Below, in pieces: positions 10,247-50,741 of a stretch of DNA of 64,000 nt. Under the pieces are notes generated by a model that had not been told where the DNA came from, ran no database searches, and saw nothing but the letters and a program-made list of their open reading frames with translations. Source of the DNA: Escherichia phage vB_EcoM-Pr121LW. Numbering within the stretch: position 1 is the stretch's first letter; each line of letters opens with the position of its first letter. The stretch lies in sequence record MH752840.1, one strand, 5' to 3'. A program made the translations under genes and the position numbers.

Positions 10247-10708
10247 CTACTTAAACAACAGTTCAAGATAGTGCAAAATTAACAGAAGTTGAATTACGCC
10301 CAGCACAACGGCAAGTATGTTAATCTTAGAATCAAAAAACTTCTTAACTTTTACCCTAAAAGGTTCCTTAATGTCCTTTACGATCCTATCTATAGATGAC
10401 CTCATATCTCTGATTACCATCCTGAACATTAAAGACGGATGCTCCCTCTCTGTAACGGAATCGAAAACATACTCTCTTCGGTCATAAGGGCCGCCAGCTC
10501 TGCGTATTAACCTCTCCACAGATACCTCGAACGTCACACCTGTAACGTAATCATCTATAACAAGTAGTGACGGGTCTTTACTGTCAAGAGGCACCAAAGT
10601 TATCTTTCCAGATTTTGTTAAAATTTCTCCTTTTTCAAGCAAGGTATACCAATGCTCTCTGCCAAGGCTATTGAGGCACGTTTTTACATATTTAACAAAC
10701 ATCGTCAC
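10247..10708 (-). CDS. hypothetical protein (C-terminal TM helix)
   Basis: ORF; hydrophobic C-terminus. Confidence 0.35.
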   Translation of the reverse strand: MTMFVKYVKTCLNSLGREHWYTLLEKGEILTKSGKITLVPLDSKDPSLLVIDDYVTGVTFEVSVERLIRRAGGPYDRREYVFDSVTEREHPSLMFRMVIRDMRSSIDRIVKDIKEPFRVKVKKFFDSKINILAVVLGVIQLLLILHYLELLFK

Positions 10709-12850: not shown

Positions 12851-13135
12851 CTACCAGGTTACTGTCAAGTAGGCAACCGTATTATTTTTCTCTGGGGAGA
12901 TGCCAACAACATCTACCTGCAGACCTCCTGCCCTTAAATCTCCAACAATGTGCGGGAAGTAATCTGAGAGATGCGAGGGTAGATTTATCGAAAATCCGCA
13001 CCCCAGAAAGCCTGCTAACGCTTTATTTTGTATCTCCCCTACAATCGCATCATAAATGGAGTTAAGCTCGTCAGGAAGCGTTACAGGACGTTTTAGCGCT
13101 AACTGGTGTAATTTGTCCTTAGCACTCATTTTCAT
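12851..13135 (-). CDS. hypothetical protein (start at MKMSAKDK)
   Basis: ORF. Confidence 0.3.
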   Translation of the reverse strand: MKMSAKDKLHQLALKRPVTLPDELNSIYDAIVGEIQNKALAGFLGCGFSINLPSHLSDYFPHIVGDLRAGGLQVDVVGISPEKNNTVAYLTVTW

Positions 13136-13665
13136 TTCAGGTCTACCTCTGGAGGTGCCAACCACATAAACGGCGGCAAGTCTAAACGGTTTTTCTTATC
13201 CCACACAAAATATGCATATGCTTGCCCGTCAGTTCTGCCATTTGATTGAAATGATGGACGCTTAGATATTGTGATCACAGTAGTAGGTGCATTATTAAGC
13301 CACCATTCAAATCTGGCTTTGCTTTCCAGAAAATTAAGACGTAAAAGCATAATAACTACGTCAGCATCTTTCAACGCCTTGTCTACGAACTCACGGGCCA
13401 GACTGTATGGTGGGTTGGTGATAATACAGTCAACATGGTTGTATTCTGTATTCAGATAGTCAACACCTTCTTGGATTTCTCCCCATGCAGATCCTAACGG
13501 CATACGGGAGTAGAACACACCTGAGGCACTATTCCTGCAAGGCTCTAAATAGGTCCAGTCCTCTGGGAACGGAATAAGGTCATACAGTCCTTCTGCACAC
13601 CACTCCGGTGTCACATACTCATCGTATGCGTTACGTTGTTCATCAGGTTTTCTAGCACAAGTCAT
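13132..13665 (-). CDS. DNA N6-adenine methyltransferase (small, NPPY class)
   Basis: IITNPPYS catalytic motif with upstream YVTPEW. Confidence 0.6.
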   Translation of the reverse strand: MTCARKPDEQRNAYDEYVTPEWCAEGLYDLIPFPEDWTYLEPCRNSASGVFYSRMPLGSAWGEIQEGVDYLNTEYNHVDCIITNPPYSLAREFVDKALKDADVVIMLLRLNFLESKARFEWWLNNAPTTVITISKRPSFQSNGRTDGQAYAYFVWDKKNRLDLPPFMWLAPPEVDLK

Positions 13666-13680
13666 GCAAATCTCCAGATC

Positions 13681-13703
13681 ATAAAAGCCCTCCGAAGAGG
13701 GCT
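13681..13703 (-). terminator. rho-independent terminator (minus strand) after ClpP-like gene
   Basis: GCCCTC-CGAA-GAGGGC hairpin followed on minus strand by TTTTAT. Confidence 0.55.
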
Positions 13704-13716
13704 TTAGAATTAATGT

Positions 13717-14766
13717 TTAAGCTTCTTCGACAATTCCTGCACCCAGGATTTTTTCATTGAGCTCTTTTGCTGTTTTAATGATATTGTCCATCAGACGCTT
13801 GCGGGTCTTGTCTTTCACCTTAACCTCTTCACCGCCGTTCAGAGTAGTCTTCAATTGAGACAGAATATCCTGAAGTTCGACGACAGAGAATCGCTGCAGA
13901 TCTTCTGAAGTAATTTCACCCAGGGCGATCCGGACGGTCTCACCACTTTCCATCTGCAGATTCAGGAACACAGTGTGAACATCGTCTTTCATACCATTTG
14001 CTTTTGCAGACTCAACAGCATGAACCAGCTCGTCCAGAGATGTGCATTGGTGAATCTCTGGCAGGCCTGCTTCGCCTAGCACACCTTCTTCATCACTTTT
14101 TGCCAAAAGCTTTTTCGGTTTCTGTCCATTCTGAATGCGCTGAATGTTTTCATCGTCCAGAATGATAGCACCAGTTCTAGATGCCAGCTCTTCTCCATCT
14201 AACCACACTTCACCGCCAGCTGTGATGGATGCGATCTCATCTTCTGTCAGCACCCCACCGTAGTATTTTTCGATCAGGCGTTCAAAACGTTTTTTCCAGT
14301 AGCTGACCTGAGTATTCATGTTCACACCGTTACCATAAGTGCCACCTTGATAGTAGTGGAACATAAATTCTGTGTCCGGAGCCACAGTACGTTCTTTGCA
14401 ACCAAGCCATAAGATTGTTCCAGCAGAGCAGCACATCCCTTCAGCATGTGCAACAACGCTTGCCTGAGACTCTCGGAATGCCTGCAGATAAGCCATTGCA
14501 ATGTGCACGCAACCCCCAGGGCTATTGATGATCACCCGAATGCTTTCTTCCGGCTGAGCCATACGGATCGTCTGCAGACGAGACATATGATCTTGTAAGT
14601 CTTCCAAATCGTCGATATAAAGAACGTGGTCAACAACAGGTGTTGGGTAGCTGTATGTTTCCATGATACCGCCCGGCATACCAAACATTTTATTACTCAT
14701 AGGTTCGAAACCGTTCTGTTTTTCTTTCATGCCGTGTACCATGGTGCTGCGAGGTGTTAAATTCAT
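13717..14766 (-). CDS. ClpP-like serine peptidase (S14 family) with ~150-aa C-terminal extension
   Basis: INSPGG oxyanion motif and GMCCSAG serine motif spaced as in ClpP; long acidic helical C-terminus. Confidence 0.6.
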   Translation of the reverse strand: MNLTPRSTMVHGMKEKQNGFEPMSNKMFGMPGGIMETYSYPTPVVDHVLYIDDLEDLQDHMSRLQTIRMAQPEESIRVIINSPGGCVHIAMAYLQAFRESQASVVAHAEGMCCSAGTILWLGCKERTVAPDTEFMFHYYQGGTYGNGVNMNTQVSYWKKRFERLIEKYYGGVLTEDEIASITAGGEVWLDGEELASRTGAIILDDENIQRIQNGQKPKKLLAKSDEEGVLGEAGLPEIHQCTSLDELVHAVESAKANGMKDDVHTVFLNLQMESGETVRIALGEITSEDLQRFSVVELQDILSQLKTTLNGGEEVKVKDKTRKRLMDNIIKTAKELNEKILGAGIVEEA

Positions 14767-14826
14767 GAGAAATCCTTAATATTGGAAGTTGAAAGCTATT
14801 TATTTAAACCTGATTCACATTTACCT

Positions 14827-15138
14827 TTATTTAGCAATCACTAGGGAATACTTACGATTGTCAGAAGCATCACAGCTCAATGATTGCCAGTCTACCACAT
14901 ACCACGTATCATTGTCAACAATTACTTTATCGCCTGTTCTGTAGCAGGTGCTGCTTTCAATAATCCGAGACTCGATAAAGAATCTGTGTCGGCGCTCACG
15001 TAGCAACGCTAAGTTGATTATATTACCACCGCTGTCCTTGATCCACACATTCTTGGATCCTTTATTTGCCAAAATTGTCTCTCCGTTATAGACAAACAGG
15101 CAGTATATTTTATTCAGTCTCTCTTGTATTGTAGCCAT
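14827..15138 (-). CDS. hypothetical protein
   Basis: ORF. Confidence 0.35.
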   Translation of the reverse strand: MATIQERLNKIYCLFVYNGETILANKGSKNVWIKDSGGNIINLALLRERRHRFFIESRIIESSTCYRTGDKVIVDNDTWYVVDWQSLSCDASDNRKYSLVIAK

Positions 15139-15168
15139 ACTATCTCCTTCTCCTTGTCTTGTCCGGTA

Positions 15169-15197
15169 ATAATATCTAAATCTTACCTGTTTGTCAA
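15169..15197 (-). promoter_or_regulatory. sigma70-like promoter (minus strand) TTGACA-17-TATTAT
   Basis: Reverse complement reads TTGACAaacaggtaagatttagaTATTAT upstream of 14827-15138. Confidence 0.45.
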
Positions 15198-15241
15198 CAA
15201 CTGTTTTAGATATCTAAGGGTGGAATAACCACCCTTCTGTA

Positions 15242-16030
15242 TTACTCGGAAACAGGGGTCCAAATATGATTTGCACGATCCTCAATAAGATTGAGTGCAA
15301 TCTGACGACCCAACCCGGAACGAACAACATCGTCTGGACTATCAAAGCTGATCATTCCAACCTCAGGATCTGGATGACGAGTAAAGAAATCCGTCACCCA
15401 TGCAAGGCCAGATTTACCAGGGATGTCACGTTGGCTATTATCGCCCATAATTACAAGGGTGGCCTGATCAGAGATCCTTGTGATAATTGACAACATTTCT
15501 TCAGGGTTAGTTTGCTGTGCCTCGTCAATCAGGACAAAGCATCGCTCATCGAAACTACGACCACGAATGCTTTCAACCTCACAAATCTCGATACGGCTGT
15601 TCTGACCGTCTCCCAGCATTGCGGCAAAAGCACCTTTGCCAACACGACGACAAATCGTGTCCATCATGCTTCGAAGATAGGGCCACAGTTTCTGCATTGC
15701 ATTTCCAGGTTTAAATCCTGAAGTCTTTCCTGTCTGAACGTAAGGACGTGCAACAATGATCTTATCAATCTCGTTCTTACGCAGAAGATCACCTGCATAG
15801 GCAGATGCCATGAATGTCTTACCAGATCCAAACACACCGTTTACAATGATAATCTTACGTGACCCTAGATAATCAAGATACTTTTGCTGCTTCTTATTCA
15901 TTGGTCGGAGAGCTGGAGCGGTGTGCTCTCTTTCGTCAGCAAATTTCTCAGCAGCCTTACGCAGGCGATCAGATTTGCGAGCCTCTCTAGCTTCATCACG
16001 CATGCGTTTTGTTTCTTTAGCTCGACCCAT
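15242..16030 (-). CDS. phoH: PhoH-like ATPase
   Basis: Walker A GVFGSGKTFMA and overall PhoH-like layout; basic N-terminus. Confidence 0.75.
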   Translation of the reverse strand: MGRAKETKRMRDEAREARKSDRLRKAAEKFADEREHTAPALRPMNKKQQKYLDYLGSRKIIIVNGVFGSGKTFMASAYAGDLLRKNEIDKIIVARPYVQTGKTSGFKPGNAMQKLWPYLRSMMDTICRRVGKGAFAAMLGDGQNSRIEICEVESIRGRSFDERCFVLIDEAQQTNPEEMLSIITRISDQATLVIMGDNSQRDIPGKSGLAWVTDFFTRHPDPEVGMISFDSPDDVVRSGLGRQIALNLIEDRANHIWTPVSE

Positions 16031-16067
16031 GTGGGACTCCTTTCAGATTGAGATGTGCCAAGTACTT

Positions 16068-16418
16068 TTACTGCAACAGTTTTTCAATAGCCGCTTCCAT
16101 GCTGCTTGCAACAGCCTGAACTCGGATATTCATCTCTTCTTGGTGGATCAGCTCCTTAAGCTCTTTAATGGTAAATTCTTTAGAGAAACCTTCCACCATA
16201 ATCTTGTGTAAGGCTTCTTGCGTGTCTACTTGCAAGAACTTTTCCAGTTTGTTGGCAGAGGCTTCTAAATCAGCCCGAATACGAGGGTCATCTGTGCGAT
16301 TCAGCATTAGGCGTAAGCCATCAAGATTAGTAGAAATAGCGTCTGCATGTTGAGTAACTAACCGTGGCAAAATGAGATCTACAAACTTATTAGCCAAATC
16401 GATACGTTCTTGTGTCAC
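16068..16418 (-). CDS. hypothetical protein (GTG start)
   Basis: ORF. Confidence 0.35.
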   Translation of the reverse strand: MTQERIDLANKFVDLILPRLVTQHADAISTNLDGLRLMLNRTDDPRIRADLEASANKLEKFLQVDTQEALHKIMVEGFSKEFTIKELKELIHQEEMNIRVQAVASSMEAAIEKLLQ

Positions 16419-16528: not shown

Positions 16529-16592
16529 TTGGCACCTCCTCTGCTTTCATTTTACGATAATTATACCTATCTAAACAAAGCTTTGTCAACAG

Positions 16593-17242: not shown

Positions 17243-19366
17243 TCAGCAACCACAACTTCCGTAGTGCTTAACCCGTTCTATAACTTCCGCTTGCTTACCT
17301 TTATTGTAAGGACGGGAGTTTGGACTAGACAGGTACCCGGATACACGTCTGATCACACTGATCGTTCCCTCTTCATGGTTTCCACACTCTGGGCATACAA
17401 AGCCTTTAGCTGTTGCACTGAACTCACCAGAAAAACCACACTTGAGACATTTATCCACAGGCTGGTTGATACCAAAATACATAATGTGTTTATATCCGAA
17501 ATCAACAAGAGCTTCCAAAGCATCTAAGTTGTTTTTCAGATTTGGTGTCTCTACGTATCCGATGTTGCCACCAGAGGAGATCATAGCAAAACCTTCCTCA
17601 TACTCCCACTTATCAAAAGGAGAGCTATTGATCCATACTGGCTGATGGAAACTGTTGGTGAGATATTCATGCTCGTGCTTCAACACTTCAGGATATTCAC
17701 GATCCAGACAGGTTGCAGCTTTATAGCATAGACTCTCAGAAGGGGTGCCGTACAAGCTAAACGCTAGTCTACTTTCCTTCTTGTATCGCTCACAAACATC
17801 TCTCATGTGCTGGAGTATTCCAAGAGCTAAAGCCTTGTCACCCTCCCTGCCCAAAATCTGACAGGTTTCATACACACCAATATACCCAATACTGATGGAA
17901 GCGTACCCGTCATAGAAGAGTTTATCAATACTCTCTTCAGGATCCAGGCGAGCAAGAGCGCCTTCACACCACATGATTGGGTTCTGCCCTGCCTTTGTTC
18001 CTTTTAGACGGTTAACCCTTACAAGGTGAGCCTCGTATGCAAGATCCAGGTATTCGTCAAGAACTGCAAAGAAATCAACACCTTCCGTTTTAGCTTTTGC
18101 CGCAATCATTGGCAGGTTAAGGCTAACAACGCCTAAGTTAAATCTACCAAGGTATTTCTCCTCGCCTGTTTCCAAGTCATTGTATTTGCTAAGAAAACTC
18201 CGGCAACCCATGCTCGTTACTTTACCATCTGTCGAGCCTGTCACTTTACGATTTAGTGGAACAGAAACAAAGTCAGGATAAATCCGCTCTGCAGAGCATT
18301 CCAGAGCTAATCGTTTCAAATCATAGTTAGGATCTCCAGGGTTCATGTTGACACCCTCTTCTAGGAAGAACAGCACTTTAGGGAACACAGGTGTGATACG
18401 TTCTTCACCAAGACCCATTTTGTGGACTTTCAAGTAGTTTTTGGTAATCATTCTACCAAAGACCGAGGTATCCAGTCCTAAACTTAATGTGATGAATGGA
18501 GTTTGCCCGTTGACAGAGGTTAACGTATTGATTTGATAGAGCAAAGTCTGCATGCTGTCAAATACGTCTTTATCTGTCATTTGCATTGCAACAGTCTCAG
18601 CATCTGGCAACCAATGTTCCTGGCAAAATTTAAGGTTCTTCTCATAGGTTGCTTCAGCATACTGTGCCAGATAATGATCAATATGGCTCATAGTCTGACC
18701 TCCATATTGAGCACTAGCTACTGCACTAGAGATTTGGCTAAGGATTGTTGTTGCAACCCCTATTGACTTCGGCTTACTGACATGGGCGTTGCCAATGTTG
18801 AATCCGTTTTCCAACATATCTGGATAATTTACCAAACAACAGTTTGTTAACGGACTGATCAAGTAGTCAAGATCATGCACATGGATGAAGCCTTTATTGT
18901 GCTCTTCTGAGACACGGTCTGGCAGGATCTGTGTTGATGCAAGGTGTTTGCTAAGGATGCCTGCAAGCAGGTCACGATGAGTGTGTACATGATTGGTAGG
19001 CTTATTTGCGTTTTCTTTTGTAAATTCATCACAAGTGCGATCCAAGAAGCCACTAATATCTGCAAGCAGTTTTCCACCTGCCTCTCTGTTATTATCTCTT
19101 GTCTGCCTATACTGGATGTATTCTCTGGCTGCGCATTTTAAACCCATATCCATAAGAGCGTCTTCAACAAGGATATGGATATTTTTTACAGAGATCGTGC
19201 ACTGGTCGGTTGGTAGATTGTTAGCAACAACTTCATTAACCGCGCAGGCGATCCGGTAAGCTTCTTCTTCAGTATGTCCAGACTCAAGTAAGGCGGACTC
19301 TGCCGCCTTGATCACCTTAATTCCGTTATAGACCTCTTCTCTACCGTCCCGTTTTACAACTTTCAC
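17243..19366 (-). CDS. nrdD: anaerobic ribonucleoside-triphosphate reductase (class III)
   Basis: 707 aa; C-terminal glycyl-radical region RRVSGYL and C-terminal Cys cluster. Confidence 0.9.
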   Translation of the reverse strand: MKVVKRDGREEVYNGIKVIKAAESALLESGHTEEEAYRIACAVNEVVANNLPTDQCTISVKNIHILVEDALMDMGLKCAAREYIQYRQTRDNNREAGGKLLADISGFLDRTCDEFTKENANKPTNHVHTHRDLLAGILSKHLASTQILPDRVSEEHNKGFIHVHDLDYLISPLTNCCLVNYPDMLENGFNIGNAHVSKPKSIGVATTILSQISSAVASAQYGGQTMSHIDHYLAQYAEATYEKNLKFCQEHWLPDAETVAMQMTDKDVFDSMQTLLYQINTLTSVNGQTPFITLSLGLDTSVFGRMITKNYLKVHKMGLGEERITPVFPKVLFFLEEGVNMNPGDPNYDLKRLALECSAERIYPDFVSVPLNRKVTGSTDGKVTSMGCRSFLSKYNDLETGEEKYLGRFNLGVVSLNLPMIAAKAKTEGVDFFAVLDEYLDLAYEAHLVRVNRLKGTKAGQNPIMWCEGALARLDPEESIDKLFYDGYASISIGYIGVYETCQILGREGDKALALGILQHMRDVCERYKKESRLAFSLYGTPSESLCYKAATCLDREYPEVLKHEHEYLTNSFHQPVWINSSPFDKWEYEEGFAMISSGGNIGYVETPNLKNNLDALEALVDFGYKHIMYFGINQPVDKCLKCGFSGEFSATAKGFVCPECGNHEEGTISVIRRVSGYLSSPNSRPYNKGKQAEVIERVKHYGSCGC

Positions 19367-42236: not shown

Positions 42237-42311
42237 GCCCTGTTAGCTTAGTGGATAAAGCAGCGGCCTTCTAAGCCGTTGACACTGGTTCGAGTCCAGT
42301 ACGGGGTGCCA
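42237..42311 (+). tRNA. tRNA-Arg (anticodon TCT)
   Basis: Manual cloverleaf: 7-bp acceptor stem, D-stem GCTT/AAGC, anticodon loop CTTCTAA, T-loop TTCGAGT, encoded CCA. Confidence 0.75.
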
Positions 42312-42442
42312 AGTTCTTTTTAATGTAGCTTACTTTAGCAGAGTAAATCTTCGGCAAGTGGCGGTAACCACTTTTACCGATACCTCATAGTTAGTGGTGA
42401 GAACACTAGCTATTTTAAAAAGAATTTAAATATTAGTATTTA

Positions 42443-42530
42443 GGTGAGTTAATTCCGTAGGGGTAGCGGGGCAGACTGTAAATCTGTTATCATTGCGATT
42501 CGGGTGGTTCGACTCCATCACTCACCACCA
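42443..42530 (+). tRNA. tRNA-Tyr (anticodon GTA), long variable arm
   Basis: Perfect 7-bp acceptor stem GGTGAGT/ACTCACC, anticodon arm GCAGA-CTGTAAA-TCTGT, T-loop TTCGACT, CCA; 88 nt. Confidence 0.7.
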
Positions 42531-42644
42531 AATTTATATTTTTAAATGCATAAATTATACAGATAATGGCATTGATATTTATCGTCGTTTATACTAGTCA
42601 CTAACTGCTCGAAAATCAGTGTCATTATCAGTATTGTTTATAAA

Positions 42645-42735
42645 AGAGGGTAGGGAGCAATGGTGCTCAAGCGGTCTTGAAAACCGTCCCGTTGAGGATG
42701 ACTCGATGATGGTTCGATTCCATTACCCTCTGCCA
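42645..42735 (+). tRNA. tRNA-Ser (anticodon TGA), long variable arm
   Basis: Perfect 7-bp acceptor stem AGAGGGT/ACCCTCT, anticodon loop CTTGAAA, T-loop TTCGATT, CCA; 91 nt. Confidence 0.7.
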
Positions 42736-42833
42736 TATTGTTGACCTTGTAATTAAGCGAAAGCCGGAAGCAGAACCGGATTATCAAATGTTACAGTCGT
42801 CATCGCCGACTAGCAACATTGTCAACATACTGA

Positions 42834-42932
42834 GCTAGGTAAGCCCTTTGGCAAGGGCGAGGATTTTTAATCCTGAAAATAGACGAGGTAGTCGTTGAAT
42901 ACATAGGTGGTTCGATTCCACCACCTAGCACC
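42834..42932 (+). tRNA. atypical tRNA-like gene (anticodon loop TTTTTAA, possibly Lys-TTT), ~30-nt extra region, no full CCA
   Basis: Acceptor GCTAGGT/ACCTAGC, D-arm GCCC-TTTGGCAA-GGGC, T-arm GGTGG-TTCGATT-CCACC are clean; anticodon stem and variable region are irregular. Confidence 0.35.
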
Positions 42933-42937
42933 TTTTT

Positions 42938-43013
42938 GCTGATGTAGCACAATTGGTAGTGCAATTGATTTGTAATCAATAGGTTGCAGGTTCAAGTCCT
43001 GCCATCAGCACCA
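42938..43013 (+). tRNA. tRNA-Thr (anticodon TGT)
   Basis: Acceptor GCTGATG/CATCAGC, D-stem GCAC/GTGC, anticodon arm ATTGA-TTTGTAA-TCAAT, T-loop TTCAAGT, CCA. Confidence 0.8.
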
Positions 43014-43014
43014 T

Positions 43015-43089
43015 GGCCCTGTAGCTGGAAGGTTCAAGCAAGCGACTCATAATCGCCAGACGGTGGTTCAATTCCACCCAGGGCCACCA
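43015..43089 (+). tRNA. tRNA-Met or tRNA-Ile2 (anticodon CAT), elongator type
   Basis: Acceptor GGCCCTG/CAGGGCC with G1-C72 pair, anticodon loop CTCATAA, T-arm GGTGG-TTCAATT-CCACC, CCA. Confidence 0.7.
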
Positions 43090-43100
43090 AATAGTAAATA

Positions 43101-43177
43101 CTCCGCGTAGCTCAGCTTGGTAGAGCGCCTGATTTGGGATCAGGAGGTCGAGTGTTCGAATCACTCCGTGGAGACCA
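43101..43177 (+). tRNA. tRNA-Pro (anticodon TGG)
   Basis: C1-G72 acceptor pair as in bacterial tRNA-Pro, D-stem GCTC/GAGC, anticodon arm CCTGA-TTTGGGA-TCAGG, T-loop TTCGAAT, CCA. Confidence 0.8.
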
Positions 43178-43997: not shown

Positions 43998-44281
43998 GAG
44001 TTGCTGCACTGTTTATTGTGTGCTTTTTATTATGCGGGTGTGCAACCAGCGTTGAGAGAGAATACAAGATTGACCCTCCTGATGTAGGAAGGTTGATTGT
44101 TAAACCCCCGGAAGGTGCCATGAAACCACCTGCTAAAGCTATGCCTTTGAAGAAAGGTGCGCCAGATGCAGTGAATTCTGGCATTATGAGGGATAATAAT
44201 CTGTCTTGTAGCAATGATAGAGCTAAATTGATCATTTTGCAAGACTATATTAGAACACTGTTTCCAAAGGAGAGAGGTTAA
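43994..44281 (+). CDS. o-spanin (Rz1-like) outer-membrane lipoprotein
   Basis: Signal peptide with lipobox-like LLCGCAT, proline-rich mature region; 4-nt overlap with previous gene. Confidence 0.5.
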   Translation: MRVAALFIVCFLLCGCATSVEREYKIDPPDVGRLIVKPPEGAMKPPAKAMPLKKGAPDAVNSGIMRDNNLSCSNDRAKLIILQDYIRTLFPKERG

Positions 44282-44706
44282 TGTCTAAGATTTACGGACC
44301 GTGTTCTGAAAAGCAGAAGATGATCCTCGAAAACGATGCAGATATTTTGGTAATCGGCGGTGCCGCAGGGTCTGGCAAGTCGTTCCTCTTGCAGTTGATG
44401 CCGCTTAAAATTATCGATGACCCCCACAGCTCTGTGGTTATGTTCCGAAGAACAACCCCACAGTTGGAAGGTGAGGGTGGACTATGGCCTAAAGCAGTAG
44501 CTATTTATAGCGATCTGCCTGAAAACATTAAGCCAAAGTTCAGAGAGAAGGATCATAAGTTCATTTTTCCACGGTTTGATCCGAACACTGGCAAGTGGGA
44601 TAGAAGCAAAAAGGGAGCTGTTGTAAAATACTGCCACATGGAGTATGTACAAGATAAGCTTAACCATCAAGGGCTTGAGTACACCATGGTTTGCTTCGAT
44701 GAGGGT
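44281..44706 (+). CDS. terminase large subunit, exon 1 (ATPase N-terminal part)
   Basis: Walker A GGAAGSGKS and Walker B MVCFDE; frame closes with TAA right at the intron start. Confidence 0.7.
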
Positions 44707-45026
44707 TAATTTGTAGCTCTCGTAAAACCTCCCTAATTGCGGGGAAATCTTTACTATTAATACCACCAACCTGTCATGGTAACATGATAGAGGCTTCGAA
44801 GAGAGATCGAAGGTATGGTAACAGTGTGTTAATTTAGATAATCCGCAGCGAAGCATCCGAGAGGATGAACGTTCAACGACTAGTCGAAAGACGTAGAATC
44901 AAGCGATTCGAAACGGGAGGGTAAGCGGTTGTTGTCGCTTATAAGATATAGTCTGGTCTGCATGGAGACATGCAGCTGCCTGAAAAATGGCGGGGCAAGA
45001 CTAGCGACCTTGCCCGAACATAGACG
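44707..45026 (+). ncRNA. group I self-splicing intron (ORF-less) in the terminase large subunit gene; boundaries approximate
   Basis: Conserved elements in order: P AATTGCGGGGAAA (~44737), Q AATCCGCAGC (~44842), R GTTCAACGACTAGTC (~44870), S AAGATATAGTC (~44940); intron begins GGT|TAATT like T4 td; no ORF inside. Confidence 0.65.
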
Positions 45027-46148
45027 ACACAATTCGAATGGGAGCAGATAGACTATCTGATGTCTCGTCTGCGATCTCAGTCAAAGTATCCATCAAGGAT
45101 GGTTATCAGCTGTAACCCTGATTCAGAACACATGCTTGCCAAACTGGTTAGATGGTGGTTGGACGATGAAGGGTATCCAGATCCGGAGAAATGTGGTAAG
45201 AAAAGATATTTTATCCGACGCGACGGTGAATTTATTTGGGGGGACTCTAAGGAGGAGTTGATAGAGAAATACACCACGGTTAACGGACTGGGTGTAGAGA
45301 TCAAGCCAAGACCGTTGTCATTCTCGTTCATAGGCGCAACAATATTCGATAATCCTGTCTGTTTGAGAGACAACCCAGAATACCTTGCTTTCCTCGAAGG
45401 TCTACCAGAGCTGGAAAAAGCTCAGCTTCTCCATGGTAACTGGTTTGCAAAGCCTGAGGGTGCAAACTATTTTCAAAGATCTTTCCTTCGTGATGCCGAT
45501 AGAGTACCCCTTGGATCAGTATCTTGCAGGGCATGGGATAAGGCAGGAACCGAGAGAACTTCTGGCAATAAATTTCCTGACTTTACTGCCAGTATTAAGG
45601 TAAGTAAAGATAGCGACGGCTTTTATTACCTGTCAGGGGATTATTGTCCTGAAAACGTGGATGACGGGAGGTATTCCACAGGTCTGGAAGGCAAGTTCTG
45701 TAAAAAGGCTGGTGAACGAGATGTGATCATCAGGAAACAGGCGCAGTTTGATGGTGATGATTGCATAATCGTATTCTCTGTGGACCCTGGTCAGGCAGGT
45801 AAGAGTGAGTTCTTAACCTCATCCAGATCCTTGCTCGCAGAAGGGTTCAGGGTTGAAGAAGACCCAATGCCTTCCAACAAGTCTAAACTGACAAGGTTCT
45901 CACCTTTTGCCAATCTTGCCCAACAAGGGATGGTGAGGATTGTAAAATCCAGTTTCCATCCTGATACTCTGGAAGCATTTCTGACCGAACTTGAAAAATT
46001 CAACGGGGAAAGATCAACATTTAACAGAAAAGACGACTGGGCTGACTGTGTAGCTTCTGCAATTAATTTCCTGGAGAAAGAGGAGGTAGCACTTCCTTGT
46101 GTGATTCCATCAATCTCATCACCTTCTATGTTCAAGCGTTTTATCTAG
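45027..46148 (+). CDS. terminase large subunit, exon 2 (nuclease domain); exon start uncertain within 45027-45060
   Basis: Frame open from 45024; 45027 follows a G and restores frame with exon 1; product size and position before the putative portal gene. Confidence 0.6.
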   Translation, partial: TQFEWEQIDYLMSRLRSQSKYPSRMVISCNPDSEHMLAKLVRWWLDDEGYPDPEKCGKKRYFIRRDGEFIWGDSKEELIEKYTTVNGLGVEIKPRPLSFSFIGATIFDNPVCLRDNPEYLAFLEGLPELEKAQLLHGNWFAKPEGANYFQRSFLRDADRVPLGSVSCRAWDKAGTERTSGNKFPDFTASIKVSKDSDGFYYLSGDYCPENVDDGRYSTGLEGKFCKKAGERDVIIRKQAQFDGDDCIIVFSVDPGQAGKSEFLTSSRSLLAEGFRVEEDPMPSNKSKLTRFSPFANLAQQGMVRIVKSSFHPDTLEAFLTELEKFNGERSTFNRKDDWADCVASAINFLEKEEVALPCVIPSISSPSMFKRFI

Positions 46149-46250: not shown

Positions 46251-47807
46251 GTGTCCAAAAAGAACCGCAGGAAACACAACGCCACAGCCAAAACTGTGAA
46301 TAAATCTGGGAACGCAGGCGCACCAACTCATAATGTTCGTATGAGTGAGATCGGTTCTGGCGCACTTTCCCAAATTATGGCAGAATCGCAATCTATGATG
46401 GTTGAGGAATTGCGTTGGCCTCAGCTGATTGCCACAGTGGAGACTATGAAATGTGATTCCACAGTTGCTACTGCCTTAGATACAAAATACGTTTTCATCA
46501 CGAAAGCATTTAATGATTTTAAGATCCTTTATAATGTTAAAAGTGAAGACTCTAAGAAAGCTGCCGAGCTTATAGAGTATTCTTTGCGTAATTTGGCAAA
46601 CCAACAAACCCTTCGGGATATTGCAAGAAGCGCAGCTACCTTTAACGAGTATGGTTTTTCACTGTTTGAGAAAGTATACCGCAGAGAGAAAGAAGGTAAA
46701 TATGCTGGGATGCTTCTTATTGATAAAATTGCATTCCGACCTCAGGCCAGTCTGTCTAGATCAGAGCCGTTTGTCTTTGACAAGAATAGTAGAACGCTGA
46801 CAGGTATTTATCAGTCACCTAATGCATTTCTAAACACTCAGAATGCACGCTGGGCTGGACCTCTTGCTGCAATGCCTTCAAAAGGCTTTAATGAGCCTGA
46901 AATTTTCATCCCTGCTAAAAAGCTTATGCTCATGACCCTGTCAGGAACAGAATCTAACCCTGCAGGTGTGTCACCTATGATAGGTTGCTACAGATCTTTC
47001 CGTGAGAAAGTTCTGATTGAAAACCTTGAGGTTGTTGGCTGTTCCAAAGACCTTGGTGGTGTACTTGAGCTGAAAATTCCTTCCAATATTTTGAACAAGG
47101 CCAGCATTGACCCGAATTCAATGGAAGGGAGAATGGTTGCAGATCTTATGCTTGACGCAGCAAACGCCCATAGTGGTGAGCAAAGTTTCTTTATACTTCC
47201 GTCTGATAGAGATAAGTCTGGTAAAGAGCTTTACTCCATGACCCTGAAGGGGGTTGACGGTATGGGTAAGCAGTATTCCACTAAAGATTTGATTGATGCC
47301 CGTAAGAAGGCGATTCTTGACCGTTTCGGTGCTGGCTTTATTAACCTCGGTAACGATAACGTTGGATCCTTCTCTCTGTCTGAGTCAAAACAGTCTATCC
47401 ATGGTCATTTTGTTCAGCGTGATATAGATATTATCACTGAAGCCTTCAATAAAGATCTTATTCCACAGCTTCTGGCATTGAATGGTATCATCCTTGAAGA
47501 TGATGATATGCCTAAACTGAAACCTGGTCTGATTGAAGAGGTGGACATGGAGAGCTTCTCCAAGTTTGTCCAGAGGATCGGTGCTGTAGGTTACTTGCCA
47601 AAAACTCCTGCAGTAATTAATAAGATTCTTGAAGTAGGTGGGTTTGATGAAAGATTTGACGAGGACATGGATCAGGAAGAGCTGATGAAGCTCTTGGGCC
47701 AGGACATCAGTAGAGCTGGTGATGGAATGGCTGCAGGATCCACTGGTAACGGCACTTCTAAGATGTCATCAACCAGAGATAATTCCATATCCAACATGGA
47801 AAATTAA
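46251..47807 (+). CDS. putative portal protein (GTG start)
   Basis: 518 aa, immediately downstream of terminase; position and size only. Confidence 0.45.
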   Translation: MSKKNRRKHNATAKTVNKSGNAGAPTHNVRMSEIGSGALSQIMAESQSMMVEELRWPQLIATVETMKCDSTVATALDTKYVFITKAFNDFKILYNVKSEDSKKAAELIEYSLRNLANQQTLRDIARSAATFNEYGFSLFEKVYRREKEGKYAGMLLIDKIAFRPQASLSRSEPFVFDKNSRTLTGIYQSPNAFLNTQNARWAGPLAAMPSKGFNEPEIFIPAKKLMLMTLSGTESNPAGVSPMIGCYRSFREKVLIENLEVVGCSKDLGGVLELKIPSNILNKASIDPNSMEGRMVADLMLDAANAHSGEQSFFILPSDRDKSGKELYSMTLKGVDGMGKQYSTKDLIDARKKAILDRFGAGFINLGNDNVGSFSLSESKQSIHGHFVQRDIDIITEAFNKDLIPQLLALNGIILEDDDMPKLKPGLIEEVDMESFSKFVQRIGAVGYLPKTPAVINKILEVGGFDERFDEDMDQEELMKLLGQDISRAGDGMAAGSTGNGTSKMSSTRDNSISNMEN

Positions 47808-47827: not shown

Positions 47828-47856
47828 TTGCAAAACCTCCTTTGGCGTGATAAAAT
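47828..47856 (+). promoter_or_regulatory. sigma70-like promoter TTGCAA-17-TAAAAT
   Basis: Hexamers with 17-nt spacer; the track TTG start at 47828 is the -35. Confidence 0.45.
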
Positions 47857-47875
47857 AATCCACATGGGGAATAAG

Positions 47876-48295
47876 ATGCCACAGGAAGAAATGATTTCCT
47901 ACGAAATCATCTACGAACCTGACACTAAAGATGCTCACGGTGAGTGGATGAGTAAAGACACCATCAAAAAGGCTAAAGATAACTGGGACGCAGCATACGC
48001 CGCAGGCCTAGTTTCTGAGAACCTTTTCCACTTGACCTCTACAGATGCTTTCACCATTGAAAAGACGTGGATTCAAGAAGAGTTTGATGTTGTAGTGATT
48101 GGCACTGAGCAGGTCATCAAGGCTGGCTCTTGGGTTGCTAAAGTTAAATACAATAATCCTGAATTATGGGAAGCTAAGAAGGCTGGCATTGTTGGTGGCC
48201 TAAGCATTCAGGCAACAGGTAATGTTGATGAAGAAACTGGTGAAATTACCAACGTAAACTTCGGGATCAGTGTTGTAGAAGAGGGCAATGAATAA
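47876..48295 (+). CDS. hypothetical head morphogenesis protein (possible prohead protease)
   Basis: GGGGA RBS then ATG (MPQEEM...); lies between portal and scaffold. Confidence 0.35.
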   Translation: MPQEEMISYEIIYEPDTKDAHGEWMSKDTIKKAKDNWDAAYAAGLVSENLFHLTSTDAFTIEKTWIQEEFDVVVIGTEQVIKAGSWVAKVKYNNPELWEAKKAGIVGGLSIQATGNVDEETGEITNVNFGISVVEEGNE

Positions 48296-49272
48296 TGTCT
48301 GAAAAAACGATTACTATTAAAGAGAAGGGGATTGCCCTGTGCCACAAGGCGCAAGGCTATAGCGCTAACAACAGACCTGTATCTCTTTTGATGAAGAGTG
48401 ATCTTAAGCCTGAGCAGTTAACAGACGATATTGTTAAGGCACTTCGTCAAGTTACTGTGGAGCTTAGTTTTGAAGAATACCTGCGTCGTTTCTTCGATAT
48501 GTGGTATGATGATGCTAAAGCACTTGCACATATGCTTGGCTTTGAGATTGAAGAAGAGGCTTGGGCTAAAGAGCATCCTGATTGGGAATGGGCGCAAGCT
48601 GACGCAGAGTCTTGTATTGCATGGCTGGAAGAGCGTTGTGATAACGTGACCATTCATAAAGCTGCAAAAGAAGGCAAGCAGCTTAGTGTGGTAGATCAGT
48701 ACAGTCTGTTAAAAACACAACAGATTTTTGAACAAGTAACCGCTGATCTCTTCGATAAAGAAGGGAACCTGATTAAGGCGGTACAGGAACCTGCTGAGGT
48801 GGATAAAACTACCGAGGTGGATGATGTTGCAAAATCCGCAAATACCGAGGAGAATCCGGTGGACGTAACCAAAACTAAAGAGTATCTGGATCTGCTGAAG
48901 CAAGTAGAAGAGCTGAAAGCAACCCAGAGTAAAGCTGAAGAAATCATCAAGGCCCAAGTTGAAGTTGAAAAAGCTAAAATGCTGACTAAGGCTCAAGCTT
49001 TAAGCTTTGTTGGTGAAGAAGATCATGCAACCCTGGTTGACTTCATGCTGGAAAAAGCTAACGAACCTATCGTAGCTATGCTGGAGAAAGCTCAAGCCAA
49101 AATTAAAGAGCTGGAAGCAGAGGTGCATAAAACCAAAGAAGAGTTTGCCACCACTGAACATGGTAATGATGGCGAACCTGTTGTGGATGATATTGCAAAA
49201 TCCGCAGAAGAAATTCTTGCTGAAAACGTTGCAAAAGCACTTGCTCGTGCACGTGCAGAATCTGCCAAATAA
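48295..49272 (+). CDS. putative scaffolding protein
   Basis: Acidic, helix-rich, coiled-coil-like; between portal and capsid genes. Confidence 0.4.
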   Translation: MSEKTITIKEKGIALCHKAQGYSANNRPVSLLMKSDLKPEQLTDDIVKALRQVTVELSFEEYLRRFFDMWYDDAKALAHMLGFEIEEEAWAKEHPDWEWAQADAESCIAWLEERCDNVTIHKAAKEGKQLSVVDQYSLLKTQQIFEQVTADLFDKEGNLIKAVQEPAEVDKTTEVDDVAKSANTEENPVDVTKTKEYLDLLKQVEELKATQSKAEEIIKAQVEVEKAKMLTKAQALSFVGEEDHATLVDFMLEKANEPIVAMLEKAQAKIKELEAEVHKTKEEFATTEHGNDGEPVVDDIAKSAEEILAENVAKALARARAESAK

Positions 49273-49730: not shown

Positions 49731-50741
49731 ATGATTACTCGTAAAGATGAATTTGGCATTGTTGATTTAGGTGCTACTCTGGACCTTGTTCCGCGCCAAT
49801 TCCGACTGATTACCGGTATGGATCTGTTCGAAACCCGTCTCGGCACCTCAACGATTGCTCAGATCGAGCGTGTTGATGAAGTTGTAACCGACATTCCGGC
49901 ACGCCGTCGTGGTGGTGAGCGTAACTACGTTGGTAATGAACGTGCTCAGGTTAAAAACCTGAACATCCCGTTCTTCCCTCTGGACAAAGGCATCACCGCC
50001 GCAGATGTTCAGAACTTCCGTCGTTACTTCACCCCTGATGCTCCGAAAACTGTTCAGGACGTAGTAACCCGAGTTGTTCGCCGTATCCGTGTTTCCCATG
50101 AAGCACTGCGTGAGAAAGCGCTGTTCCAGGCTATTCTGGGTAAATCCTATGCACCTGGTGACGCTACCTGCCAGTATGATTACTACACTCTGTGGGGTGT
50201 GTCTCAGAAATCTGTAGAAATCGATCCAGCAAAAGCAGATCAGGACCCGATGGAAGTTCTGGAAGACGCTCGTCTGCATATCGCTCTGCAAGCTGGTGAC
50301 AACGCTGCTGGCTACCGTATCGTGGCTCTGTGCTCTCCTGAGTTCTTCAGTGCAGTCACTCACCACCCGCTGGTAGAGCTGGCATACACCTACTACGGCT
50401 CTGCTCAGGAACCTCTGCGTCGTCGTCTGGGTGCTGGCGGTCAGGACAGCGTTTATCGTGTGTTCGAACATAAAGGTATCACCTTTATCGAAGATATCTC
50501 TGGCAATATTCCTAAGAAAGAAGCTCGCATTCTGCCGATGGGTATTGATCAGATGTTCCAGCTGCACTTTGCTCCGGCAGATGATGTTAACGAAGCAAAT
50601 ACCCCAGCACAGGAACTGTATATGTGGTATAAACACTCTGCATACCTGCGTGAAGAGAAGATTGAATCTGAAACTTCTATGCTGGCAGTTAACACCCGTC
50701 CAGAGCTGGTTGTTAAAGCAACTCTGAAAGGTGGTGAATAA
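49731..50741 (+). CDS. putative major capsid protein
   Basis: 336 aa; codon usage shifts to CTG/CGT/GGT-type codons; strong terminator downstream. Confidence 0.5.
   Translation: MITRKDEFGIVDLGATLDLVPRQFRLITGMDLFETRLGTSTIAQIERVDEVVTDIPARRRGGERNYVGNERAQVKNLNIPFFPLDKGITAADVQNFRRYFTPDAPKTVQDVVTRVVRRIRVSHEALREKALFQAILGKSYAPGDATCQYDYYTLWGVSQKSVEIDPAKADQDPMEVLEDARLHIALQAGDNAAGYRIVALCSPEFFSAVTHHPLVELAYTYYGSAQEPLRRRLGAGGQDSVYRVFEHKGITFIEDISGNIPKKEARILPMGIDQMFQLHFAPADDVNEANTPAQELYMWYKHSAYLREEKIESETSMLAVNTRPELVVKATLKGGE

Follow-up and report, generated by a model that had tools for sequence, protein, structure and literature searches.

The window examined here is a 64,000-nucleotide (nt) stretch of the genome of Escherichia phage vB_EcoM-Pr121LW (MH752840.1), and our subject is a gene within it that encodes a ClpP-like protease (Table 1). 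Megablast searches of positions 13000 to 16100 against phage genomes returned 122 records, nearly all of them from Escherichia coli Vequintavirus (rV5-like myophages) and led by phage Mangalyan (97.8% nucleotide identity, 100% query cover); the window is therefore a piece of an rV5-type genome. About 18 GenBank records labeled "Campylobacter phage" (MG0656xx) are also 93 to 97% identical to this region of an E. coli Vequintavirus, and host mislabeling or contamination of that data set is the likely cause. The open reading frame (ORF) of the protease has exactly the ends given in a preliminary description of this DNA, which had not recorded that it lies on the minus strand. It is an already known gene, orthologous to rV5 gp122; the rV5 annotation dates from 2008/2013 and gives the product as a "ClpP (ATP-dependent) protease subunit" of 349 amino acids (aa) (PMC3606486, Table S3). 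The predicted protein matches PHROG 5410 ("ATP-dependent protease") with an E value of 4.4e-155 (517 bits; residues 24 to 345 on profile positions 4 to 322 of 323) and is 99.4% identical to Mangalyan CPT_Mangalyan_126 and 97% identical to other Vequintavirus proteins. Vequintavirus orthologs (97 to 99% identical) are labeled as a ClpP subunit or a ClpP-like protease in more than 100 genomes, and the ClpP-subunit label runs through the PHROG 5410 proteins of the Vequintavirinae (rV5, FV3, Mangalyan, LL12, PVP-SE1, and phiTE). We found no difference of substance from rV5 gp122 and its orthologs: the 349-aa architecture, the promoter P121, the terminator t122, and the synteny with PhoH and methyltransferase genes are all the same as in rV5. 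Because the gene is already known and widely annotated, the window brings nothing new in kind.

Table 1. Features of the window discussed in the text, with positions counted from its first letter
Feature	Position	Strand	Details
ClpP-like protease gene, rV5 gp122 ortholog	13717..14766	minus	349 aa, ATG start, TAA stop
N-terminal tail, residues 1-44	14635..14766	minus	predicted disordered; carries family motif FG-MPG
ClpP-fold peptidase domain, residues 45-212	14131..14634	minus	from model and Foldseek
Variable linker, residues 213-262	13981..14130	minus	partly disordered; length differs among family members
Family-specific C-terminal domain, residues 263-349	13720..13980	minus	87 aa; beta-hairpin and two long helices
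Codon of Ser114	14425-14427	minus	putative catalytic position
Codon of His137	14356-14358	minus	putative catalytic position
Codon of Glu186	14209-14211	minus	putative catalytic position; ClpP Asp171 position
Sigma-70-type promoter TTGACA-N17-TATTAT	15169..15197	minus	11/12 matches; upstream of 103-aa and protease genes
Intrinsic terminator GCCCTCTTCGGAGGGCTTTTAT	13681..13702	minus	15 nt past protease stop codon
103-aa gene (rV5 gp121)	14827..15138	minus	PHROG 5456, E = 3e-39; directly upstream of protease gene
PhoH-like ATPase gene	15242..16030	minus	Pfam PF02562, E = 3.6e-47
N6-adenine methyltransferase-like gene	13132..13665	minus	PHROG 799, E = 1e-66; NPPY motif
PHROG 7821 "virion structural protein" gene, probably rV5 gp133	10247-10708	minus	153 aa; 3 kb from protease gene
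Portal gene	46251-47807	plus	directly upstream of XkdF-type protease
Head-module protease, Peptidase_S78_2/XkdF type	47828..48295	plus	155 aa; Pfam PF14550, E = 6.3e-18, 65.4 bits (cutoff, 24)
Scaffold candidate	48295-49272	plus	325 aa; directly downstream of XkdF-type protease
Lambda-E-type major capsid protein gene	49731-50741	plus	after scaffold candidate and decoration protein

Profile, structural, and conservation evidence bear out the earlier proposal that this gene encodes a ClpP-like peptidase with a long C-terminal extension. The profile check suggested with that proposal gave a match to Pfam CLP_protease (PF00574) over residues 59 to 168 at 47.8 bits (E = 2e-12), above the cutoff of 20.2, and the oxyanion (INSPGG) and serine (GMCCSAG) motifs that had been picked out by eye lie at residues 80 to 85 and 110 to 116. 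We built an AlphaFold2 model on 23 family members, in which the predicted local distance difference test score (pLDDT) is 90 to 95 across residues 45 to 212, 76 to 90 in the C-terminal part, and below 50 at residues 1 to 40, 222 to 240, and 258 to 262. As modeled, residues 45 to 212 form a complete ClpP fold that includes the long handle helix (residues 150 to 169), and Foldseek aligned this segment with solved ClpP structures over 160 to 172 columns (E of about 4e-10; TM(target), 0.65 to 0.73). Ser114 and His137 align with ClpP Ser97 and His122 and are invariant both among the 23 family members and in a cross-lineage alignment that joins homologs from ICP1, phiTE, Pakpunavirus, N4-like, and T5-like phages with E. 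coli ClpP. The ClpP Asp171 column, as placed by the MAFFT alignment only, holds Glu186 in the protease and D or E in all six phage lineages aligned, and the catalytic set read from this alignment would be Ser-His-Glu (Ser114-His137-Glu186). The preliminary description had tied its proposal to an S14 or S49 profile match and a Ser-His-Asp triad; because the S14 match, the ClpP fold, and the conserved Ser and His are all present, the proposal stands, with the amendment that the acid, as aligned, would be Glu and not Asp. The S49 model SppA_dom gave 14 bits against a cutoff of 155.

The acid position also bears on whether the protein is an enzyme at all. It is Gln in the large 4MG/PVP-SE1 subgroup of the 23-member alignment, which may mean that the third triad residue is dispensable or that activity is low, and the residue that follows the catalytic Asp, Arg in E. 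coli ClpP, is Val187 in the protease. Together with the Glu that replaces the canonical Asp here, these substitutions would suit a catalytically weak or inactive ClpP-fold protein retained for a structural or binding role. However, Ser114, His137, and INSPGG are invariant in phage lineages that diverged deeply from one another, which would be difficult to account for if the protein were not catalytic, and the gene is under strong purifying selection; we consider such an inactive protein highly improbable and infer that the protease is catalytically active.

With cellular ClpP (S14; E. coli ClpP, PDB 1TYF) the protease shares the fold, handle included, the Ser and His positions, and the INSPGG oxyanion motif. 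It differs in an overall identity of only about 19 to 24%, in the Asp171-to-Glu change, in the additional 44 aa at the N terminus and 137 aa at the C terminus, in missing every equivalog cutoff, and in a docking pocket that is not conserved. The TIGR00493 ClpP equivalog scored 33.3 bits against a cutoff of 308.6, and the other ClpP models in NCBIfam scored 21 to 39 bits against cutoffs of 228 to 361. We mapped the pocket by aligning profiles with hhalign, with the catalytic Ser and His as anchors, and took the E. coli ClpP residues of the hydrophobic acyldepsipeptide (ADEP)/IGF-loop pocket, where the IGF/IGL loops of ClpX/ClpA dock, from a published list (V44, L48, F49, E51, A52, F82; R22, L23, V28, F30, Y60, Y62, I90, M92, L114, and L189; bioRxiv 10.1101/2023.03.01.530711). 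Seven loop-contacting positions are replaced in the protease (Y60 by R77, Y62 by I79, F82 by E99, I90 by H107, M92 by E109, F112 by T127, and L114 by A129), mostly by invariant charged or polar residues (R77, E99, H107, E109, and T127 are invariant in the 23-member alignment), and five more, ClpP L48-F49-L50-E51-A52, fall in a five-residue deletion. On this alignment the ClpX/ClpA docking surface is lost. Without that surface, the "ATP-dependent" part of the current label has no support. The name "ATP-dependent Clp protease proteolytic subunit" fits the protein in its fold but implies a partnership that is neither demonstrated nor likely; the protease is probably not an ATP-dependent subunit in the Clp sense and may be independent of any ATPase.

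These results bear directly on the idea that the protein is a proteolytic subunit that works with host ClpX or ClpA, or that joins the rings of host ClpP and so redirects or blocks proteolysis in the host. The full ClpP fold with its handle in the model and the Pfam CLP_protease match are what such a subunit should have, and heteromeric ClpP1/ClpP2 rings with a degenerate triad exist in bacteria (Listeria). The loss of the pocket, the equivalog score far below its cutoff, and the low identity to E. coli ClpP all argue the other way, as does the rV5 annotation, in which we found no Clp-type unfoldase and a MoxR-type ATPase, far away in the genome, as the sole AAA+ entry. A Keio-screen paper on the V5-like phage LL12 reports lipopolysaccharide core synthesis genes as the required host genes and never mentions clp, lon, or protease, clpX, clpA, and clpP included (PMC7229145). 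We regard a partnership with the host Clp machinery as decidedly unlikely.

Outside the peptidase domain, the protein differs in part from what the preliminary description had sketched as an acidic helical extension of about 150 aa. The helices are there and the net charge is -7 (pI 5.0); however, the extension (residues 213 to 349) is 137 aa long and less acidic than the ClpP domain (net charge, -12), and it combines a disordered linker (222 to 240) and a helix (244 to 256) with a beta-hairpin (267 to 281) and two further helices (295 to 309 and 322 to 342). Modeled alone, residues 262 to 349 again gave a beta-hairpin, a short helix, and two long helices (pLDDT 86; predicted template modeling score, 0.76), and F293, E297, and R322 are invariant across the 23-member family alignment. 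At the other end of the protein, F28 and G29 of the N-terminal tail are nearly invariant in the same alignment, and comparison of the tail with five Vequintavirus orthologs found no nonsynonymous changes and 1 to 7 synonymous ones. The ratio of nonsynonymous to synonymous substitution rates (dN/dS) against these orthologs is 0.02 to 0.06 in the tail, peptidase domain, linker, and C-terminal domain alike, and the whole 349-aa frame is therefore constrained coding sequence.

The C-terminal domain appears from profile and structure searches to have no relatives outside its phage group. Foldseek found no significant match in the PDB (best E, 0.6), and a search of 1.84 billion representative proteins with a profile of the domain returned five clusters, all of them the same family and architecture or fragments of it, so that no other architecture was seen. 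The domain is weakly detectable in the phiTE homolog (hhalign E = 2.5e-4, probability 43%) and absent from the 180- to 205-aa homologs of T5-like, N4-like, and Pakpunavirus phages; the extension of ICP1 gp211 was considered as a homolog and rejected, with no detectable similarity (hhalign E = 0.11). The Pfam families SAP and HeH matched only at E values of 0.06 to 0.08 and in one or two of 18 members. One could picture a nucleic-acid-tethered protease, in which a SAP/HeH/Rho_N-like helix-loop-helix that binds DNA or RNA places the ring of peptidases at the nucleoid or on phage DNA in replication, to clear bound host proteins there; we think this very unlikely.

The protease gene lies in a block with the order NrdA/B, NrdD/G, PhoH, 103-aa gene, protease, methyltransferase, and its reported place between a methyltransferase and PhoH is correct, with the 103-aa ORF separating it from PhoH. 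The near-consensus promoter that the 103-aa gene shares with the protease gene is P121 as predicted for rV5, one base different from the sequence in rV5 Table S4, and the terminator, which a simple scan did not list, is identical to rV5 t122 (Table S4, -14.9 kcal/mol); the 103-aa gene is probably cotranscribed with the protease gene. The rV5 authors describe genes 82 to 163 as one unit, apart from the late genes 27 to 66 with their T4-late-like promoters. We compared this neighborhood among 17 related viral contigs, whose N-domain identities range from 53 to 98%, by tblastn within 10 kb of the protease gene. PhoH was found in 16 of them and the methyltransferase in all 17; TerL, portal, XkdF protease, and capsid genes were found within that distance in none. 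The 103-aa family adjoins the protease gene in five of the 17 (L006 to L009 and L020). A tblastn search with rV5 proteins of 62 more distant viral contigs (about 29% identity) found no informative neighbors of the protease homologs.

Two neighbors were considered as partners. PhoH is also near the ICP1 and phiTE protease homologs, and it was rejected as a dedicated ATPase partner: it adjoins the protease gene in rV5, ICP1, and phiTE but is not within 5 kb of the homologs in T5-like, N4-like, and Pakpunavirus phages, and the simplest account of the proximity is that the two genes share a module. The 103-aa protein, which has no Pfam match, is a possible partner or regulator of the protease, and a PHROG 5456 member lies two genes upstream of the phiTE protease homolog. 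A conserved small partner gene as a general feature was rejected, as PHROG 5456 is upstream only in Vequintavirinae and ICP1, N4-like, and Pakpunavirus phages have unrelated genes at that place. PADLOC defense models matched neither the protease nor the 103-aa protein.

Two further observations concern the same block. A perfect sigma-70 consensus promoter (TTGACA-N18-TATAAT, 12/12) lies at 16560-16589 on the minus strand, upstream of a 116-aa gene and PhoH, at the position of rV5 P118. NrdD is a single intact ORF of 707 aa (17243-19366, minus strand), whereas in Mangalyan it is annotated in two pieces with an HNH endonuclease gene between them (25815-28735 of contig L001), so that a homing-endonuclease or intron insertion is present in one and absent from the other of two near-identical phages.

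Relatives of the peptidase domain occur well beyond the Vequintavirinae. The domain matches PHROG 1827 (E = 1.7e-40), whose short proteins include ICP1 gp211, T5/BF23 ORF45, Pantoea phage AAS21 gp134, Pakpunavirus orf044, and a protein of the N4-like Alteromonas phage AD45-P2. These proteins have a homologous peptidase domain (25 to 36% identity) with the Ser and His kept and an acidic third position, and they too are encoded among nucleotide-metabolism or early genes, alongside a separate head protease. They differ in that most are about 180 to 205 aa long and have no C-terminal domain; the ICP1 gp211 extension is the dissimilar one described above. The short homologs adjoin ribonucleotide reductase in an N4-like phage and a deoxynucleoside monophosphate kinase in a T5-like phage and are near dCMP deaminase and ligase in a Pakpunavirus, and gene contexts are similar in ICP1, phiTE, AD45-P2, AAS21, and Zigelbrucke. 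The ClpP-like protease and a separate head protease occur together in T5-like and ICP1 phages. In the ICP1 transcriptome, the homolog of the gp122-type protease belongs to a block whose peak, at 12 min, comes ahead of the capsid genes, and the ICP1 capsid cluster gp122-126, with the predicted protease gp125, is late (PMC7567579). Our search of the full-text literature found no functional study of the gp122-type family, only the rV5 annotation, the ICP1 transcriptome, and a statement in a paper on BF23.

The head module of the window lies on the plus strand, and the distance of about 30 kb given in the preliminary description agrees with a portal start about 31.5 kb from the protease gene. Its order is split TerL, portal, 155-aa protein, scaffold candidate, decoration protein, and major capsid protein. 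The 155-aa XkdF-type protein is 41% identical to the ICP1 "capsid protease" and, from its family and position, is the probable true prohead protease of this phage. Several GenBank records label it "DNA methyltransferase," and its best PHROG (1530) bears that name, which looks like a propagated misannotation. The large terminase is encoded in two ORFs (44281-44709 and 45060-46148, plus strand) that cover PHROG 979 positions 147 to 273 and 285 to 621. A gap of about 350 nt separates the two, as would fit the terminase intron that has been described in rV5. Six clustered tRNA genes (Arg-tct, Ser-tga, Thr-tgt, Met-cat, and Pro-tgg; 42237-43177, plus strand) immediately precede the genes for lysis and terminase; one 99-nt call among them has a four-base anticodon and may be intron containing or degenerate.

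Our preferred reading, which we hold to be reasonably probable, is that the gp122-type protease is a pre-late cytoplasmic ClpP-fold peptidase that acts on host or early phage proteins, and is not a prohead protease, and that it works without canonical ClpX/ClpA docking. The preliminary description had offered two roles, a displaced prohead protease or a protease acting on host or early proteins; we infer the second because the first is disfavored. Several points weigh against this reading, and most of them favor a displaced or second head maturation protease that would cleave scaffold or internal proteins, with the C-terminal domain targeting it to the capsid interior in the manner of lambda gpC/Nu3. 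By its profile scores the peptidase domain is somewhat nearer to head maturation ClpP-like proteases (60 and 83 bits) than to cellular ClpP (33 to 48 bits). NF045542 (ClpP-related head maturation protease) gave 60.3 bits (E = 2e-16), and PHROG head-protease families gave 35 to 83 bits, with PHROG 1684 at 83 bits (E = 6e-23, residues 70 to 261) and matches also to PHROGs 94, 2976, and 133; an origin from head proteases is therefore plausible and a residual head maturation role possible. A ClpP-like fold and a protease domain followed by a helical tail are likewise shared with the ClpP-related head maturation proteases and with lambda gpC-type S49 protease-scaffold fusions. The otherwise nonstructural transcription unit of the protease holds the PHROG 7821 structural gene, whose probable rV5 counterpart, gp133, is abundant in rV5 virion mass spectrometry, and position alone is thus not decisive. 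To these can be added the Gln at the acid position of the 4MG/PVP-SE1 subgroup, the traces of the ClpP-like ORF45 in BF23 virions, and the 2023 BF23 paper, which states that the function of the Clp protease of this T5-like phage is unknown.

A capsid maturation role for the gp122-type protease is nevertheless disfavored, and we judge it very unlikely. The suggested search against prohead protease families did yield the matches just listed, but NF045542 falls well short of its cutoff of 120. A displaced prohead protease is disfavored because an XkdF/S78_2 protease with a capsid protease homolog in ICP1 already sits directly after the portal, ahead of the scaffold candidate; because the gene has a sigma-70-type promoter inside a nucleotide-metabolism transcription unit and does not use the late motif; because the ICP1 homolog is in a mid-infection block ahead of the capsid genes; and because the short homologs occupy early or nucleotide regions in phages whose head protease is a separate one, the two kinds coexisting in T5-like and ICP1 phages. 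Head genes were near the protease gene in none of the 17 related contigs. A nested internal start that would give a separate scaffold-like product was also rejected: no in-frame start ahead of the C-terminal domain has a ribosome-binding site, and Met259 is not conserved in the family alignment. The protease thus differs from head maturation proteases and lambda gpC fusions in its subcutoff score, its location outside the head module, the lack of a late promoter and of a nested scaffold start, and the presence of another head protease in the same genome. The gp122-type protease is, in addition, absent from the 19 proteins of rV5 virion mass spectrometry, a weak negative because prohead proteases are often lost from mature particles.

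If the protease is indeed a cytoplasmic peptidase of host or early proteins, it would consist of a ClpP-fold serine peptidase with a Ser114-His137-Glu186 active site, followed, after a flexible linker, by a small C-terminal domain peculiar to its phage group. Its own promoter, of the host type and situated within the block of nucleotide-metabolism and replication genes, would have it made ahead of the late genes, and it would work in the cytoplasm of the infected cell on host or early phage proteins and not in the procapsid. It would act alone or with some partner, without canonical ClpX/ClpA docking, and the C-terminal domain may serve target recognition or assembly. A bolder extension, to which we give little credence at present, is that the early-region ClpP-like proteins of phages (rV5 gp122, ICP1 gp211, T5/BF23 "Clp protease," and relatives) are a distinct class of Clp-ATPase-free host-takeover peptidases of large virulent phages. 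In Vequintavirinae the orphan C-terminal helix-loop-helix would then hold the enzyme on nucleic acid or on a particular host protein, where it might, for instance, remove defense proteins or proteins bound to DNA during the activity of the nucleotide-metabolism module.

Two corrections to annotation follow from this analysis. With its unfoldase-docking pocket gone, the protein is probably mislabeled as an "ATP-dependent Clp protease subunit," and the gp122-type gene should not be annotated as a head maturation protease in these therapeutic-candidate phages. More broadly, the analysis raises the question of what the whole class of early-region ClpP-like genes does in many large virulent phages (rV5-like, ICP1, T5-like, N4-like, and Pakpunavirus), beside a separate capsid protease; a substrate, if found, could reveal a new host-takeover or antidefense step.

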